DNA of 6,759 nucleotides from a virus. Lineage: Duplodnaviria > Heunggongvirae > Uroviricota > Caudoviricetes. Under the pieces are notes generated by a model. The model did no database searches. It was not told the origin of the DNA and was given only the letters and a program-made list of their open reading frames with translations. A program made the translations under genes and the position numbers. Of the stretch, positions 1-6,410 are shown piece after piece; within the stretch, counting starts at the first letter, position 1; every line of letters begins with the position of its first letter. The DNA is taken from IMG/VR virus record IMGVR_UViG_3300012155_000195; one strand, 5' to 3'.

Positions 1-249
1 AACTGCAGTCAGTGAACCGATAAGCGTAGCAAACGTCGCTGAAAACACCGCCATCGTCAATGAATGCTGAGCTGCCTGCAACAGACTGTCGTTGTTCATC
101 AGCAGGCTATACCATTTAGTGGTAAAACCCTGCCAGTTGATGCCAAAGCGCGAGCTGTTGAAAGAGTTCACAATCAAAATAATGATTGGAATATACAGGT
201 ACGCGTAGATAGCGGTCATAAAACCGCCGCGAAGCAGTCGACCGATCAT
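1..249 (-). CDS. potC: Spermidine/putrescine ABC transporter permease PotC, N-terminal 83 codons (partial, runs off window at position 1)
   Basis: Minus-strand ATG at 249-247 preceded by AAGGTGGA RBS. Translation MIGRLLRGGFMTAIYAYLYIPIIILIVNSFNSSRFGINWQGFTTKWYSLLMNNDSLLQAAQHSLTMAVFSATFATLIGSLTAV matches my recollection of E. coli PotC N-terminus; hydrophobic TM1 present. About 50% GC, unlike adjacent AT-rich DNA. Not in the supplied ORF track because it is truncated by the window edge. Confidence 0.8.
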   Translation of the reverse strand, partial: MIGRLLRGGFMTAIYAYLYIPIIILIVNSFNSSRFGINWQGFTTKWYSLLMNNDSLLQAAQHSLTMAVFSATFATLIGSLTAV

Positions 250-300
250 TCGAGTTCCACCTTTTTATTCATAAGGTGGAGCACTTTCAGGATTTTGAAT
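246..300. other. Putative host-prophage junction (attL core region)
   Basis: Upstream reading frame ends KKVELE-TGA with the TGA overlapping the potC ATG (ATGA at 249-246), as expected for the potB-potC junction, but that frame is open for only 39 codons and is AT-rich. Perfect 7-bp inverted repeat ccacctt (257-263) / aaggtgg (273-279) with 9-nt loop. Abrupt compositional shift to AT-rich DNA to the right. Confidence 0.4.
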
Positions 301-318
301 TTATTCAACTTTTTCTCT

Positions 319-352
319 TCTCCAAAATCTCTCCAAAACTTTTCCCCAAAAA
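319..352. repeat. Three tandem ~11-bp direct repeats (tctccaaaatc / tctccaaaact / tttccccaaaaa), candidate arm-type integrase binding sites
   Basis: Direct repeats seen at 319-329, 330-340 and 341-352, about 70-100 bp from the putative core, on the int-proximal side. Lambda-type attP has three tandem arm-type sites at a comparable position. Confidence 0.35.
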
Positions 353-610: not shown

Positions 611-1804
611 ATGATTTTTACTAGATTGAAATTTGTAAACCTTTGCGCATTTTCTGATGCAGAATTAAACCTTTCATTTCCCAGAAAGCTGGTTAACTCA
701 CCAATTGATGGTGAATTTTTGTTCGGGAGACCGAAGTTTTATTATCGCAAAGTATGTATCCTCACTGGAGCTAATGCTTCGGGAAAGACTTCCCTTGGTC
801 GTATGTTATGGGGGATTCAGCTTTTCTTGTCCCGGAAAAATTTGTATCAATCAGCTTTTCCTGTAAATGACAAAACCAAGAGTGCTTCCTTTGAGGCAGA
901 TTTTGCAACGGAAGGATTTTTGCATCATCGTATTTTCGTGAAGTTTAGATCCGATAAGTCTGGAACATATTTAATAAGTGAAGTTAAATACGCATCCGTA
1001 TTTATAGGAGAAAATGACTCTTGTGTCAAAACAACAAGAAAATTGGACAGAGTATTTCAAGAGTCAGGTCAGTATATTGCGAATAGCTATTACCATGCAG
1101 TGGCTGCTGATGGGGAATCTGTTTCTTTAGAGAATTTCAAGAAAAATGTGTTTCTTGGTGGATGGTATTATTTATTATCAAAAACAAAGGAAGAAACAAC
1201 AGAAATCTCTGGTTTAGATAAGAATATATTAGAACTTATCATGAAAACCTTTGATCCTAGTATAAAATCAGTTCTTGAATTAAGGGAAAATGATGGTGAA
1301 GAAAATGATAAAGATGTGTTAACGGGGTTTTCTATTCGTTTTCACAATAATGATAATGTTATTGTAACTAACTCTGGAGAAGTTGCTAATTGTGATCGGC
1401 TTTCACGTGGTACATACGATGCTGTAAAATTATCTCATTTTATTAGTTCTATAAATAGTGATTATATGGCATCGTCTGAAACAAATAATATAGCATGTAT
1501 GCTCTATTTTCTTGACGAAAGCATGGCTTATGTTCACTCAGAACTTGAAAGAGCTATCATAACTCTTATTATATCTAAATTGAAGATTAATAGTCAATTT
1601 TTCTATACAACGCATAATTGCGATATTTTTAAATTGGATTTGCCCATTCATTCGTATATTTTCATAAAGAAAGAGCATGATAGCTCAGTATTTGTAGATG
1701 CAAGTGAAATTCTTAAAAAGAATGACAGGAATTTAGCTAAATATGTTGAGAATGATGTTTTTGGTGTTCTTCCCGATTTGTCTTTGATTGAGGCGTTAAT
1801 ATAA
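611..1804 (+). CDS. ABC-type P-loop ATPase (AAA_21/AAA_15-like, OLD/AriA/AbiLi-like ATPase component), 397 aa
   Basis: ORF-track ORF 569..1804; I prefer ATG 611 (RBS 7 nt upstream) over the TTG at 569. Walker A GANASGKTS (767-793), signature-like LSRGT (1400-1414), Walker B MLYFLDE (1499-1519), H-loop TTH (1607-1615). About 200-aa insertion between Walker A and signature. Visibly AT-rich codon usage. Stop TAA overlaps the next ATG. Confidence 0.85.
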   Translation: MIFTRLKFVNLCAFSDAELNLSFPRKLVNSPIDGEFLFGRPKFYYRKVCILTGANASGKTSLGRMLWGIQLFLSRKNLYQSAFPVNDKTKSASFEADFATEGFLHHRIFVKFRSDKSGTYLISEVKYASVFIGENDSCVKTTRKLDRVFQESGQYIANSYYHAVAADGESVSLENFKKNVFLGGWYYLLSKTKEETTEISGLDKNILELIMKTFDPSIKSVLELRENDGEENDKDVLTGFSIRFHNNDNVIVTNSGEVANCDRLSRGTYDAVKLSHFISSINSDYMASSETNNIACMLYFLDESMAYVHSELERAIITLIISKLKINSQFFYTTHNCDIFKLDLPIHSYIFIKKEHDSSVFVDASEILKKNDRNLAKYVENDVFGVLPDLSLIEALI

Positions 1805-2346
1805 TGTCAAAAAATCAGAACGCAAAAATTATTTTTGTTGAAGGTGAAACAGAGTATGCCTTGTTTCAAAAGATGAAGCAAAAAGGTTTGATTAAATTCA
1901 AAAAAATTGTCAAGAAGAATTTTTGGGTTGATGATATAAAGAAATATGCAGTTAACATACCTAAAAATTGTGATTTAATAGTTGTTTTTGATAGTGATGT
2001 TATTGATAGAGTTGATAGATTTATTCAGAATGTTAATTACTTAGCAAGCAGAAAACATTCGATTTTTTTATTGCAACAGACCAGAAATTTCGAAGAGGAA
2101 ATCGCGTATTGCTGCTCTGTAACTTTAAATAAATTGATCGCTTCGTTTTGTAAATGCAAGACATCTGGAGTTGCAGATTTTAAGCGAGATTTTATATCTT
2201 CATCTAATCCTTTTGATAAGCTAGTGGCTTTAGGAATTAACCAGGATAAGTGGTTCAAAAGGGAGTTACATCATTCATTGTTAAGTTTATCAAAGTATAA
2301 ATCAGATTTTTCAACATATTTTAATGCGGATGTTATTAATTTATGA
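1804..2346 (+). CDS. Small TOPRIM-like putative nuclease (DUF4435 / DUF4276 / RloB-like effector component), 180 aa
   Basis: ATG at 1804 overlaps upstream stop (TAATG), indicating translational coupling. N-terminal KIIFVEGETE (E13 at 1840-1842, E15, E17) and LIVVFDSDVID (D63 at 1990-1992, D65 at 1996-1998) match the TOPRIM glutamate and DxD signatures. GAGG RBS at 1790-1793. Confidence 0.8.
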   Translation: MSKNQNAKIIFVEGETEYALFQKMKQKGLIKFKKIVKKNFWVDDIKKYAVNIPKNCDLIVVFDSDVIDRVDRFIQNVNYLASRKHSIFLLQQTRNFEEEIAYCCSVTLNKLIASFCKCKTSGVADFKRDFISSSNPFDKLVALGINQDKWFKRELHHSLLSLSKYKSDFSTYFNADVINL

Positions 2347-2526: not shown

Positions 2527-3645
2527 TTAAATAACCAATTTAACCCATTCCTGACCACGAGTATCGTTATAACGATCGGTGGTTGCCTGGACTTTATGTC
2601 CCAGTAATGTTTTTGTATCAATACCCTGCGCGCGGTACAGTCGTTCTGACAGGGAGCGTTGTTCATGAAATGTTGGCGGAGTTTTTCCTGCTGGTGGAAT
2701 TATCCCTGCCAGATCCCGTGCTTTGGCAAAGTAGTCGCTCAGGTTGTCTTTACTCATCGGCTTTGGTTGTTTCTGGTGCCGACTATGGATTAGATATGGA
2801 CTTAATATTCTGTCTCGGCACCCATCAATAACTTCTTTTAACGTTATCCCAATGGCATCACAGCGTAGTGTAAGCGGTAACGCCAGACGCATTCCGGTTT
2901 TTCCCTGGGTGATATGCAAGTGTTCGTTCCACACATCTGAAAAACGCATGTGGCAAATGTCATCACGGCGCTGACCAGTAACAATCGCAAGAAGCATTGC
3001 GTTACGGATAAAGTGTTTTTCAGGCGTTGCGTTGTAAATTTTTTGCCAGTCTTCCAGGGTGAGTCTGGCTCTGGTTACTTTAGGGATCGGTTTACGGGTA
3101 GCCTCCGGAGGATTCCATCCAGGAGGAACTTCCCCTGCATGCTGTGCTTCTTTATAAATATCAACCCATAATCCACGATTTACTCTCGCTGTGCTGACCA
3201 TGTCTTTATCCAGCCACTCATCCAGTATTAATGCAAAGTCTCTTACTTCCAGTTCTTTCAATGGGTGGTTTCCCAGACGGGAAACCAGGTATGCAGCCAT
3301 TCGGGCTTTTTCTTTGTGAGTTGTAGCTGCAATATCTCCATTTTTCAGTCGCGTGTCCTGTATTTTCAGATATCGATCAACCCATGCCTTTAATCTGATA
3401 CCCCGACGTTTTGTTGCTGACGGACTTTCATCAATTTTGCGCATGAAATATTCAGCTTCTGCTGCAGCTATTCGCTGATTGGCTGTGGAAGCGATTTTTT
3501 CTGCCTTACCTTTGTCTGTTCCGAGTCCGTGAAATTTTCCAGTCACAGGATTTTTATACTGGTAGTAAACTCTGCCAGTTCTGCGATCAAACTTTTCGTA
3601 AAGACCAGCTACGTCAGTGCTGTTTTTTCGTGGCCTCGGTGACAT
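2527..3645 (-). CDS. int: Lambda-family tyrosine integrase (site-specific recombinase), 372 aa
   Basis: Clear collinear similarity to lambda Int by recall: N-terminal arm-binding region (YYQYKNPVTGKFHGLGTDK vs lambda YCYRDPRTGKEFGLGRDR), catalytic motifs TGQRRDD (Arg), QGKTG (Lys), TFHEQRSLSERLY (His/Arg), LLGHK (His), TDRYNDTRGQEW (Tyr nucleophile). AAGGAGA RBS 9 nt upstream of the ATG at 3645. Confidence 0.95.
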   Translation of the reverse strand: MSPRPRKNSTDVAGLYEKFDRRTGRVYYQYKNPVTGKFHGLGTDKGKAEKIASTANQRIAAAEAEYFMRKIDESPSATKRRGIRLKAWVDRYLKIQDTRLKNGDIAATTHKEKARMAAYLVSRLGNHPLKELEVRDFALILDEWLDKDMVSTARVNRGLWVDIYKEAQHAGEVPPGWNPPEATRKPIPKVTRARLTLEDWQKIYNATPEKHFIRNAMLLAIVTGQRRDDICHMRFSDVWNEHLHITQGKTGMRLALPLTLRCDAIGITLKEVIDGCRDRILSPYLIHSRHQKQPKPMSKDNLSDYFAKARDLAGIIPPAGKTPPTFHEQRSLSERLYRAQGIDTKTLLGHKVQATTDRYNDTRGQEWVKLVI

Positions 3646-3883
3646 GAGTTAAAATCTCCTTCAGTGCATCATCATCGCCAGTATGAATTTCCGGCGCAAT
3701 TCCCGTTTCACCAGGTCCAACAAATACTGCTCGGCGATCTATCAGCCAACGCCCACGAATTTTTTGTGGCCTTGGAACGATGTATCCTAGTTTTCCGTAT
3801 TTCACCAGGGTAGTGTTTGTTATTGGGAGACTGAACCGTTTTGGTTTCCACTCGTCGAGCGTTATCAGGTACTGTTCGCTCAT
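3614..3883 (-). CDS. xis: Excisionase (Xis-like recombination directionality factor), 89 aa
   Basis: Immediately upstream of int and overlapping it by 32 nt, as in lambda. N-terminal MSEQYLITLDEW resembles lambda Xis MYLTLQEW. Start chosen at ATG 3883 (GGAG RBS) rather than the GTG at 3892 used by the ORF track. Confidence 0.8.
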   Translation of the reverse strand: MSEQYLITLDEWKPKRFSLPITNTTLVKYGKLGYIVPRPQKIRGRWLIDRRAVFVGPGETGIAPEIHTGDDDALKEILTHVTEATKKQH

Positions 3884-3944
3884 GGCTATCACTCCGGAAC
3901 GCGCCAGTTGCAGAATACCAACGACAACTGGCGACGGTTGAACA

Positions 3945-6410
3945 TTAAAAATCAGCCTGACTCGGGATCAGTTTTTGCCAGATAGCTGAAACGTATTTTG
4001 CCTGGTAACGGGCGTCATCAAGTGCATTGTGGCGCACCCCTTCGAACGGAATAGCCGTTCTGGCATCGAAGTCTATGGCTTTCCCCAGCTCAACGATTGT
4101 GCGTACATCGCGATCGTTGGACCAGCGCCACGGGCAGGGGATACCATGTCGCTCATATGAACGGCGTAAAATCACGTTGTCGAAGTTGGCTCCATTCCCC
4201 CAGACCCGGACAAAAAATTCACCGGAGTTTTCGTCGATAAATTCCCGCAGTTGCAGCAGTGCATCGTCTAACGGGATTTGATTTACCAAAGTTGCAGATC
4301 TGGCCTCGCTGGACTGTGCCAGCCACCATTCGATGGTGGAACCATCAGGAACAGCACCTTTGTCCATTGCGTCAACTAGGCTGATGACAACATAAAATAT
4401 TGGTCCAATTTCTCCGGTCTGCGGATCGAAAAATATTGCACCTATTGAGATGATCGGGGCATCTGGATTTTTTCCCATGGTTTCAAGGTCGATCATCAGA
4501 TGGTGCCACACCCTGCTGGTGGATGTGATTTGGTGATGACCGTTCATATTAATTAAGGGATCTGTCGCCTCGCCAGTTTCATTATCGCTGGCGTGATGCT
4601 GATTGCCGCCAGGGTTCTCCTTGTGTGGATGTTCAGCGCCTTCCATTTCCTCTGGATCATTTTCCTGAACTTCAACCTGATTCTCTTCATCGAATGTTTC
4701 CTGGTATGTTGCAGCGCCCATCACCGCGCCACAATCAGGGCAGTTGTCACCGCCGGTCTGACCGCAGGCGGTGCAGACTTTTTCCGCTTCCTGTTGCGCT
4801 ACTGGCTCAGGTTGTTTCGTTTCTGGCTCGTTTTGTAACGCATTTGGGCTGTTGTGTTTCGCTTTCTGGTCGTTCTGTTCCGTTTCTTGCTGGTTCTGGT
4901 TCACTGAATCGCGGGGGTCAATCCCCTTCACCCATTTCGGATCATTCGGGTCGCTAATCCCTGCAACAAATTCACCGCGAGAGGCAGCAAGCAACTTATC
5001 GGCGTCAGGCTGGCTGATATTGGCTGCCTGCATAATTTTGTTTACTTCGTCAGCGGTAACTTTTACCTGATTAACTGGATCTACCTGTTTCTGAGTATCC
5101 AGCGATTGCGTGTCCTGGCGATGTTCAGTTGTATCCGGTTCCATTGTTTCAGCCGTTGCCTGTTCATCTGCCATTGCGTCAGACGGTTGTGATTTTTCCT
5201 CATTATTTTTTTCTTCTTCTGTTTCGCGTTCAGCAGCCAGTTCGCGGTTAACTTCTTCCAGGATATCTTTTTCCGGTGTATGTCGTGCAGCAGCGAGAGT
5301 TTCCTCGGTAGGGTTCTCGTGATCAGTCTCTGTTAAATAGGCGTTAATATACCCCTGAAGGCGCCCCGGGTAGTGATAAAACTCAGGGTGTGCGCTTCGG
5401 ATAAGTGCAAAAATAGCGGCACGGGAATAATCCAGAATACCCGGGGTTGAGCGAAGTGCTGCGGACCATTCTTTGAACGGACTTTCTTTCTTCCGGACGA
5501 CTTCTTTTGCGCGACGATAAACGCTGCCCGGGATTTCATAAATATTAAAATCCATCGGAAGTGTGGCCGCTGCAATCTCCACATCCAGCGTATCGAGGGT
5601 GTGCACTAAATTCGGATTGCGATCGGTTTTGTTCCCGCCGCCAGCATTAGCACCGGAAGCCGTGCGGGTGATGCGTGAAACACGATTCCCCTTCATCCAC
5701 TCTTTTGTAAGCAGACCGCGATCGGTGTAGTCAGTGTCAAGGTATGCTTCGATGAAAGCAGTCATCACCCCCAGTTCTGAATTTACGGGGGCGGGAAAAA
5801 CACTGCCAGTATCCCGAACCAGTTTGTATAAATCCCGAATCTCCAGTGGCTCCAGTTGAGCTGCTTTATTTGAAATGGCACGGATTGTAACTGCAGGGAG
5901 TTCCTCATCCAGCGCACTATGTAATGCCCGAAGTTCTTCCCGTGAAACGTGCGTTACTGGTTTTTCGTTGCCGCGTTGAGCAAGCCAGCGAATGGGCAGC
6001 TCCTGACCGGAAACCGGCAGGAGCATGTTCTCCTCAATCTCTGTCATTTCTTCGCCGTTGACGTTGGTATTGTCAGTGCTGGCTGGTTTGTCCTGAACAG
6101 AGGGGGAGGGCGCGATAAGTACCATTGTGATACCATCTTCCCCGCCTTTTTCGTATCGGTTGCAGAATTCGGTATCAAACACGCCTTCCGGAGGAAGGTC
6201 ATTCACAACGGGTAAATGGACGCGAACAGGTTTTTTAAAATCCTCTTCGTCAAATCCGGCATCGTCCATTGCGACAACACCGCGTGATATTGCAACCGAT
6301 AATTTTTTTGCTGTGCGCCAGTAAAAACCGCCTTTAATCCCAAGGCGTTTTCTGACTTTGTCATTTTTGGCTTCGTAATATAGTGCAATTTCTTCTTTAT
6401 CAGTGCTCAT
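3945..6410 (-). CDS. Exodeoxyribonuclease VIII-like mosaic protein with acidic linker, zinc-ribbon-like CxxC..CxxC motif and C-terminal DnaQ-type DEDDh 3'-5' exonuclease domain, 821 aa
   Basis: Long ORF with GAGG RBS upstream of ATG 6410. C-terminal domain has Exo I MIDLETMG (D641 at 4488-4490, E643 at 4482-4484), Exo II GNGANFD (D744) and Exo III HNALDDARYQAKY (H794, D799; 4014-4031). CTACG..CPDCG at residues 546-560 (4731-4775). Glu/Asp/Gln-rich low-complexity regions around residues 360-440 and 500-620. The N-terminal ~350 aa resemble prophage exonuclease VIII (RecE-family) N-terminal regions by recollection only. Confidence 0.85.
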   Translation of the reverse strand: MSTDKEEIALYYEAKNDKVRKRLGIKGGFYWRTAKKLSVAISRGVVAMDDAGFDEEDFKKPVRVHLPVVNDLPPEGVFDTEFCNRYEKGGEDGITMVLIAPSPSVQDKPASTDNTNVNGEEMTEIEENMLLPVSGQELPIRWLAQRGNEKPVTHVSREELRALHSALDEELPAVTIRAISNKAAQLEPLEIRDLYKLVRDTGSVFPAPVNSELGVMTAFIEAYLDTDYTDRGLLTKEWMKGNRVSRITRTASGANAGGGNKTDRNPNLVHTLDTLDVEIAAATLPMDFNIYEIPGSVYRRAKEVVRKKESPFKEWSAALRSTPGILDYSRAAIFALIRSAHPEFYHYPGRLQGYINAYLTETDHENPTEETLAAARHTPEKDILEEVNRELAAERETEEEKNNEEKSQPSDAMADEQATAETMEPDTTEHRQDTQSLDTQKQVDPVNQVKVTADEVNKIMQAANISQPDADKLLAASRGEFVAGISDPNDPKWVKGIDPRDSVNQNQQETEQNDQKAKHNSPNALQNEPETKQPEPVAQQEAEKVCTACGQTGGDNCPDCGAVMGAATYQETFDEENQVEVQENDPEEMEGAEHPHKENPGGNQHHASDNETGEATDPLINMNGHHQITSTSRVWHHLMIDLETMGKNPDAPIISIGAIFFDPQTGEIGPIFYVVISLVDAMDKGAVPDGSTIEWWLAQSSEARSATLVNQIPLDDALLQLREFIDENSGEFFVRVWGNGANFDNVILRRSYERHGIPCPWRWSNDRDVRTIVELGKAIDFDARTAIPFEGVRHNALDDARYQAKYVSAIWQKLIPSQADF

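Follow-up and report, generated by a model that had tools for sequence, protein, structure and literature searches.

The stretch of DNA analyzed here, which we call the window, is the whole 6,759-nucleotide virus record IMGVR_UViG_3300012155_000195 (Caudoviricetes). Its left end holds the beginning of the host gene potC and a few codons of potB, and the remainder carries one arm of a phage attachment site, a two-gene insert, and the genes for an integrase, an excisionase, and an exonuclease. The features are as follows, with positions counted from the first nucleotide of the window.

1 to 249, minus strand: 5' part of potC (spermidine/putrescine ABC permease), recognized from its translation, with the start codon ATG at 249 to 247 and truncated by the left end of the window
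246 to 271, minus strand: host-derived 3' remnant of potB, made up of the NKKVELE codons with their stop, TGA (246 to 269), and of 2 nt from the Leu codon before them
256 to 263: left arm of an inverted repeat, TCCACCTT, in host DNA; putative core-type Int half-site B, CACCTTY, at 258 to 264
264: synonymous host polymorphism at the third position of a Lys codon (AAA/AAG), which goes with attB and attL and not with the phage and is the left bound of the crossover
265 to 271: TTATTCA, the putative overlap (strand-exchange) region and the only block common to attB, attP, attL, and attR
272 to 370: attachment-site arm P', which is conserved between prophages inserted here, regardless of the DNA between the arm and int
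273 to 280: right arm of the inverted repeat, AAGGTGGA, in phage DNA; putative core-type half-site C', TAAGGTG, at 272 to 278
320 to 351, plus strand: three direct repeats, candidate arm-type Int sites P'1 to P'3 (CTCCAAAA at 320 to 327, CTCCAAAA at 331 to 338, and CCCCAAAA at 344 to 351)
371 to 2528: variable cargo slot with 31% GC, from the end of the P' arm to the int stop codon; homology to other lysogens stops at 370 to 380 and resumes at 2529
611 to 1804, plus strand: AbiLi-like AAA_15/AAA_21 ATPase of 397 amino acids (PADLOC AbiLi, E = 1.4e-24; Pfam AAA_15, E = 3.6e-8), for which RefSeq gives the same start
1804 to 2346, plus strand: partner protein of 180 amino acids, weakly AbiLii- or OLD-TOPRIM-like (PADLOC AbiLii, E = 5e-4; Pfam OLD-like_TOPRIM, E = 0.01, below the cutoff)
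2527 to 3645, minus strand: lambda-type tyrosine integrase with arm-binding and catalytic domains (Pfam PF09003, E = 3.7e-21; PF00589, E = 2.1e-18), transcribed toward attL
3614 to 3892, minus strand: excisionase (Pfam Exc, E = 7.8e-5, at the cutoff); relatives carry the annotation "excisionase" at 3614 to 3883
3945 to 6410, minus strand: exonuclease of the early left operon, with a RecE N-terminal region and an Rv2179c-like 3'-5' exonuclease domain (Pfam PF16473, E = 3e-68; PF06630, E = 1.4e-25)

The genes int, xis, and that of the exonuclease all lie on the minus strand, which is the usual early-left arrangement of lambdoid prophages. The integrase belongs to the lambda family: residues 26 to 371 aligned with the lambda Int structures 1z1b and 5j0n (best E = 3.6e-54). 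The exact Int protein was present in 519 blocks of the sequence collection, and among the matches listed it adjoined potC in six of six places. The exonuclease, which is 821 amino acids long, has an exonuclease VIII (RecE) region at its N terminus and an Rv2179c-like 3'-5' exoribonuclease domain at its C terminus, with a long, acidic stretch of low complexity in between; its relatives differ mainly by insertions and deletions in this middle part. The closest complete genome with an attL identical over positions 200 to 400 is that of 2011C-3911, which has the same gene order; its lambdoid prophage of about 54 kb lies between potC and potB and includes terminase, portal, capsid, and tail genes. 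None of the complete Escherichia coli genomes was identical to the window (best, 95%), and the window copy could be a defective remnant.

To locate the host limit, we searched positions 1 to 620 against 5,426 complete E. coli genomes and obtained a match in 5,425, with annotated potC beneath the match in all of these. On the minus strand, the potC start at 249 to 247 reads MIGRLLRGGFMTAIY. In genomes with an uninterrupted potC-potB junction, the alignment ended at 271; in nine genomes, it covered 80% or more of the query, and in another group, it reached 370 to 380. The K-12 alignment showed identity through potC to GAGTTCCACCTT(C/T)TTATTCA and total divergence from 272. The first-pass annotation had placed a prophage at the potB-potC boundary and had proposed an alignment with an uninterrupted pot locus to find its edge. 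Both proposals proved sound: positions 1 to 271 are collinear with K-12 potC-potB, the exact host limit is 271, and lambda-type int, xis, and exonuclease genes follow, while in 2011C-3911, which has the identical attL, potB lies about 54 kb away beyond a complete lambdoid prophage. The AT-rich character ascribed to the flank was also evident, with a GC content of 36% at 272 to 366 and 31% at 367 to 610, compared to 47% in the potC part.

The potB remnant ends at a stop codon (248 to 246) that overlaps the potC start as ATGA, and the frame ending NKKVELE-TGA is open for exactly 39 codons; translation confirmed both statements as they had been made initially. The accompanying proposal that the phage supplies a look-alike tail did not survive comparison with attB. 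NKKVELE-TGA (246 to 269) is host potB DNA: positions 246 to 271 are the same as the attB of K-12 and DETEC-S586, except for the synonymous T/C at 264, and the phage-derived tail sits at attR and differs from it. Only the Leu-to-Met codon at 270 to 272 and everything upstream of NKKVELE is phage or junction sequence. The upstream remainder of the 39-codon frame is phage-arm sequence that is fortuitously open, not a gene; the ORF list (minimum, 30 amino acids) reported no ORF for this frame. The junction converts the potB Leu codon CTG into ATG, the A being phage base 272 (246 to 272, minus strand). This creates an eight-codon mini-ORF, MNKKVELE, which has no Shine-Dalgarno sequence of its own, has its AUG (272 to 270) in the loop between the two repeat arms, and has a stop codon that overlaps the potC start.

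Comparison of lysogens, empty host sites, and phage-type junctions yielded four attachment sites, aligned here on the shared heptamer.

attB: CCACCTT(C/T) TTATTCA GCA(A/G)ACG
attP: GTTGCCTTC TTATTCA TAAGGCG
attL: CCACCTT(C/T) TTATTCA TAAGG(T/C)G
attR: GTTGCCTTC TTATTCA GCAGACG

These sites relate as B-O-B', P-O-P', B-O-P', and P-O-B', respectively, and their flanks swap across TTATTCA as expected. The window is a lambda-type attL, with host DNA up to 271 and the P' arm from 272. The attR of 2011C-3911 reads CATCTATTTCGGTTGCCTTC TTATTCA GCAGACGAG, and about 10 IMG/VR proviruses had the same attR. A 16-mer scan of IMG/VR gave 62 hits, approximately three-quarters of which were chance matches, and only hits with P-arm context were kept. 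A complete attP was found on a metagenome contig (L093), which runs from the P arm through GTTGCCTTC TTATTCA TAAGGCGGGACA to the P' arm, int, and xis; a tandem lysogen would yield the same junction. A second attP-type example (L006) is truncated. The "phage" records vB_EcoS-640R1 and 813R8 were considered as a further source of attP and set aside, as they are prophage predictions with host flanks and thus contain attL only. In three other IMG/VR records (L047, at about 7775 to 7870, L053, and L063), what follows this P arm and TTATTCA is not potB but a different right flank (GAAGATGGAGTTATCG), and an ORF resembling D12-type DNA methyltransferases lies about 900 bp beyond. This junction may reflect a tandem arrangement with another element at this core, or else use of a secondary attachment site.

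The polymorphism at position 264 allowed the crossover to be bounded on its left side. This position is T in the window and C in K-12, and the 25 attL sequences were divided between T (11) and C (14). The base varied independently of the type of phage arm, even within one cargo type (C in L088; T in L089 to L091). All attR and P-arm sequences read had C, as did the two attP-type junctions (L006 and L093). An empty attB with T at 264 occurred at 100% identity in many genomes, e.g., that of ATCC 8739. Since T is carried by empty attB sites and attR and attP always carry C, position 264 is a host allele and the exchange lies within 265 to 271. The same two observations rule out a crossover to the left of 264, as well as a position for 264 within the overlap followed by heteroduplex resolution.

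The heptamer lies within a perfect inverted repeat. The repeat finder gave arms of 8 bp, TCCACCTT and AAGGTGGA, separated by 9 nt. The original description of a perfect repeat at 257 to 279 with a 9-nt loop was right as to perfection and loop; the arm length given there, 7 bp, was 1 bp short. The suggestion that it may mark the crossover region was also upheld, as the loop holds the 7-bp segment common to all four sites. The repeat is the dominant local fold (−11.1 kcal/mol for 250 to 286; z = −3.2; 0 of 200 shuffles as stable). By itself, an 8-bp repeat would be unsurprising in AT-rich DNA a few hundred bases long. Its dyad axis, however, is at 268, which is exactly the center of the independently mapped heptamer, and the repeat is therefore not random. 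One arm is host DNA and the other is phage DNA, and the hairpin is therefore present only in the lysogen. On the potC-sense strand, its left arm reads AAGGTGGA, which is the Shine-Dalgarno region of potC.

Conservation of the repeat was uneven. The perfect form was found in 10 of the 25 attL sequences, and the other 15 carry TAAGGCGGG(A/G), which is complementary at 6 of 8 positions at the DNA level; six of these 15 encode an Int identical to that of the window. The right-arm variant TAAGGCGGGA occurred in relatives whose Int protein is identical. CCTT-N9-AAGG was invariant across all attL and attP sequences read, and this motif plus two further pairs are the only general features of the repeat. 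The perfect repeat is not conserved, and thus its perfection here is partly incidental. What had been noted as a hairpin is best explained as a pair of putative Int half-sites, B and C', placed around a 7-bp overlap. The assignment of half-sites and overlap draws on the comparison of the four sites and on analogy with lambda, as would any statement of which bases Int contacts and cleaves.

Beyond the core, homology to lysogens that have no cargo or a different cargo ends at 370 to 380, and the same P' arm is present in the complete attP on L093. The three P'-arm repeats lie at +52 to +83 from the overlap center and were invariant in all attL sequences and relatives read. Exact copies of CTCCAAAA in the window are limited to the two at 320 to 327 and 331 to 338, and L003 has a single copy in 49 kb, located in the P arm at −134 to −127. 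At the position equivalent to P2, there is only an imperfect match (TTTTATGGA). The P arm is conserved over about 220 bp. Within it, at about −93 to −60, is a 14-bp palindrome, GGCATGCTTTTTAC(n6)GTAAAAAGCATGCC (L003, 33803 to 33836; L093, 1066 to 1099), of which a variant in L007 has two noncompensated mismatches. This palindrome could be a sib/tI-like element on int transcripts of the unintegrated phage or a protein-binding site. A promoter in the P' arm that drives potC was also considered and rejected, as the one match (9 of 12 positions, at 639 to 611) is weak and not above background.

The attachment site shares its plan with that of lambda. Both integrases are heterobivalent and have the lambda arm-binding domain, the one here with the match to lambda Int structures noted above (E = 3.6e-54), and in both cases, int and xis adjoin the P' arm and are transcribed toward att. 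In lambda, as established by Landy and colleagues, TTTATAC is the overlap and its flanks are the core-type sites C and C'; the AGGTCACTAT-type copies are P'1 to P'3 and P1. In each system, a 7-bp overlap is set between inverted half-sites, CACCTTT/TTATTCA/TAAGGTG here and CAGCTTT/TTTATAC/TAAGTTG in lambda attP (NC_001416), and each half-site matches its lambda counterpart at 6 of 7 bases. The lambda arm motifs are at +53 to +83 and −143 to −134 (NC_001416), and the three arm-type-like repeats at +52 to +83 and the single copy at about −130 in this system occupy similar places. The conserved P arm of about 220 bp is a further likeness. There are also differences. The target is the 3' end of potB rather than an intergenic attB between gal and bio, the overlap sequence is distinct, and the candidate arm-type motif is CTCCAAAA instead of C/AAGTCACTAT. 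Here, attP and attB have 7 bp in common (12 bp if the host has C at 264), compared to 15 bp in lambda. The window copy has a 2.2-kb cargo slot between the P' arm and int. No IHF site was seen in the window at 278 to 318, where both strands were read by eye and gave no match to WATCAANNNNTTR with fewer than two mismatches.

Collectively, these data make it very probable that positions 246 to 370 are the attL (B-O-P') of a lambda-like temperate phage integrated in the last codons of potB and that the repeat arms are putative Int half-sites around the overlap. Integration would occur by Int-mediated site-specific recombination into these codons, 16 to 22 bp upstream of the potC start codon, with strand exchange within the 7-bp overlap TTATTCA (265 to 271). 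The hybrid repeat would then be made up of two inverted Int core-binding sites, namely, the host half-site B, CACCTTT, as its left arm and the phage half-site C', TAAGGTG, as its right arm. Int molecules on the three candidate arm sites of the CTCCAAAA type (320 to 351) would bridge to the core during excision, with help from the adjacently encoded Xis. Excision from a host with T at 264 would be expected to release attP as GTTGCCTTC TTATTCA TAAGGTGGAG, with C, and to restore attB as CCACCTTT TTATTCA GCAG, with T.

The same bases can be read as RNA. In transcripts that run from the prophage into potC, the phage-derived 5' arm, UCCACCUU, would pair with the potC Shine-Dalgarno sequence, AAGGUGGA, and block translation of potC, such that lysogeny silences spermidine uptake or expression of potC by phage read-through is prevented. 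Several details are consistent with this reading: the 3' arm of the 8-bp stem (−11.1 kcal/mol; z = −3.2) is the Shine-Dalgarno-like AAGGUGGA, which stops 6 nt short of the AUG; nothing comparable forms at the native potB-potC junction (z = +0.45); the commoner CGGGA-type phages keep 7 of 8 pairs on the potC-sense strand by means of a G·U pair; and the AUG made by the junction (272 to 270) falls in the loop and opens the mini-ORF MNKKVELE, whose stop overlaps the potC AUG. However, every one of these features is already demanded by the explanation at the DNA level, because the complement of the lambda-type half-site consensus CAnCTT is AAGnTG, which is itself Shine-Dalgarno-like. Moreover, the single A-to-G change that preserves pairing is one event and shows no covariation, and from the arm into potC, there is no notable promoter-like site, only the 9-of-12 match at 639 to 611. 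A search of positions 1 to 2700 against Rfam gave no match at an E value of 1 or less. We consider this RNA role unlikely.

Coincidence is a still weaker account of the palindrome. In this view, it arose by chance in the AT-rich DNA of the junction and plays no part in recombination or expression. By our estimate, about 0.3 repeats of 8 bp, with loops no longer than 60 nt, are expected per 400 bases, and the perfect form occurs in just 10 of 25 attL sequences. Against this, the dyad axis falls on the crossover center to the base, both arms match lambda core-type sites at 6 of 7 positions, and CCTT-N9-AAGG never varies in the attL and attP sequences read, making mere chance very improbable. It is harder still to see the hairpin as an intrinsic terminator that shields potC from the prophage or the prophage from potC. 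Although a stable stem-loop does stand between two transcription units, neither strand has a U/T run after the stem, and a terminator role is rejected for this reason; the stem also has only four G-C pairs and a 9-nt loop, and a scan of positions 1 to 2700 did not report it. We regard this last reading as scarcely credible, and a pair of Int half-sites at the crossover remains the preferred explanation of the repeat.

The potC/potB locus is an insertion site for phages in the literature (PMC8065619, PMC11052207, PMC9997748, and PMC3486847). At potC, Stx phages of LEE-negative STEC (PMC8065619, citing Steyert et al.) and a compound prophage (PMC10925052) have been described; other examples are PP_potB in O157:H7 clade 8 (PMC9997748) and prophage J, "potB/potC," in O104:H4 (PMC3486847). 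As described in the relevant passages of these papers, the prophages share the site and the potC/potB flanks and are lambdoid elements of about 47 to 55 kb (PMC9997748, PMC3486847, PMC8065619, PMC11052207, and PMC10925052); those passages name the locus and do not give the anatomy of the core or the Int sites. The O157:H7 strain 3-5-1 has the same attL and P' arm as the window. In contrast to the published potB/potC prophages, the window has a two-gene AbiL-like cargo between attL and int, and no stx genes are visible in it. The Stx1a-converting phage record LC744186 and its six sisters (L007/L008) end with the same P arm and potB and start with an unrelated sequence in place of potC and the P' arm; therefore, their left boundary or integrase module differs.

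The cargo slot between the P' arm and int varies among prophages at this site. In the window, positions 611 to 2346 (plus strand) encode a putative two-gene AbiL-like abortive-infection system, in which the ATPase and partner genes overlap and have a GC content of 32%. The AbiL-like cargo was found in eight or nine of the 5,426 complete E. coli genomes, and the exact ATPase was found on only four public contigs of 3 to 7 kb, from metagenome or sequencing-run assemblies. In 640R1, 21AR0173, and O157:H7 3-5-1, the slot holds no cargo and spans about 47 bp (e.g., L004, 3953 to 4000), and in UTME-14 and one IMG/VR record, it holds genes for a small protein and a DUF2335 protein (L010, 2880 to 3788; L006, about 130 to 1020).

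Phage 21 and e14 integrate in the 3' end of icd and replace it. The prophages at potB are similar in that they insert in the 3' end of a coding sequence and the phage arm gives an in-frame substitute, so that the gene stays open. At attR, potB ends with LLNKKATEIDD, compared to LLNKKVELE natively in K-12, which fits the annotated PotB of the lysogen being two residues longer. Unlike in the icd phages, only four codons are replaced here, and the new tail, ATEIDD, does not resemble VELE, such that the phage DNA does not recreate the potB C terminus, and an operon is split, with potCD parted from potAB. PotB would thus retain 271 of its 275 codons and gain a phage-encoded tail, and the prophage would separate potC-potD from the potA promoter; an effect on potCD expression may follow from this arrangement. 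Insertion at potB/potC splits the potABCD operon and changes the PotB C terminus. An intact 100-nt attB was present in 3,800 of the 5,426 complete E. coli genomes, and thus about 30% are interrupted at this exact site. One could speculate that the attL hybrid hairpin serves beyond recombination, with the phage arm kept complementary to the potC Shine-Dalgarno sequence so that, together with loss of the potA promoter, synthesis of PotC and PotD is shut off. We hold this to be quite unlikely; if true, lysogeny at potB/potC would lower spermidine uptake and constitute a form of lysogenic conversion.

The junction is a lambda-type attL at an already published insertion site, real but ordinary, and the base-level anatomy of att is a refinement, not a discovery. 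As the junction follows the lambda paradigm, it has little importance beyond annotation. In that role, the att map, with the overlap TTATTCA, the putative half-sites CACCTTY and TAAGGYG, and the candidate arm motif CTCCAAAA, permits exact prophage boundaries to be called at potB/potC. The analysis adds that lysogeny alters the PotB C terminus and splits the potABCD operon and that a rare AbiL-like defense pair occupies the variable slot between attL and int.
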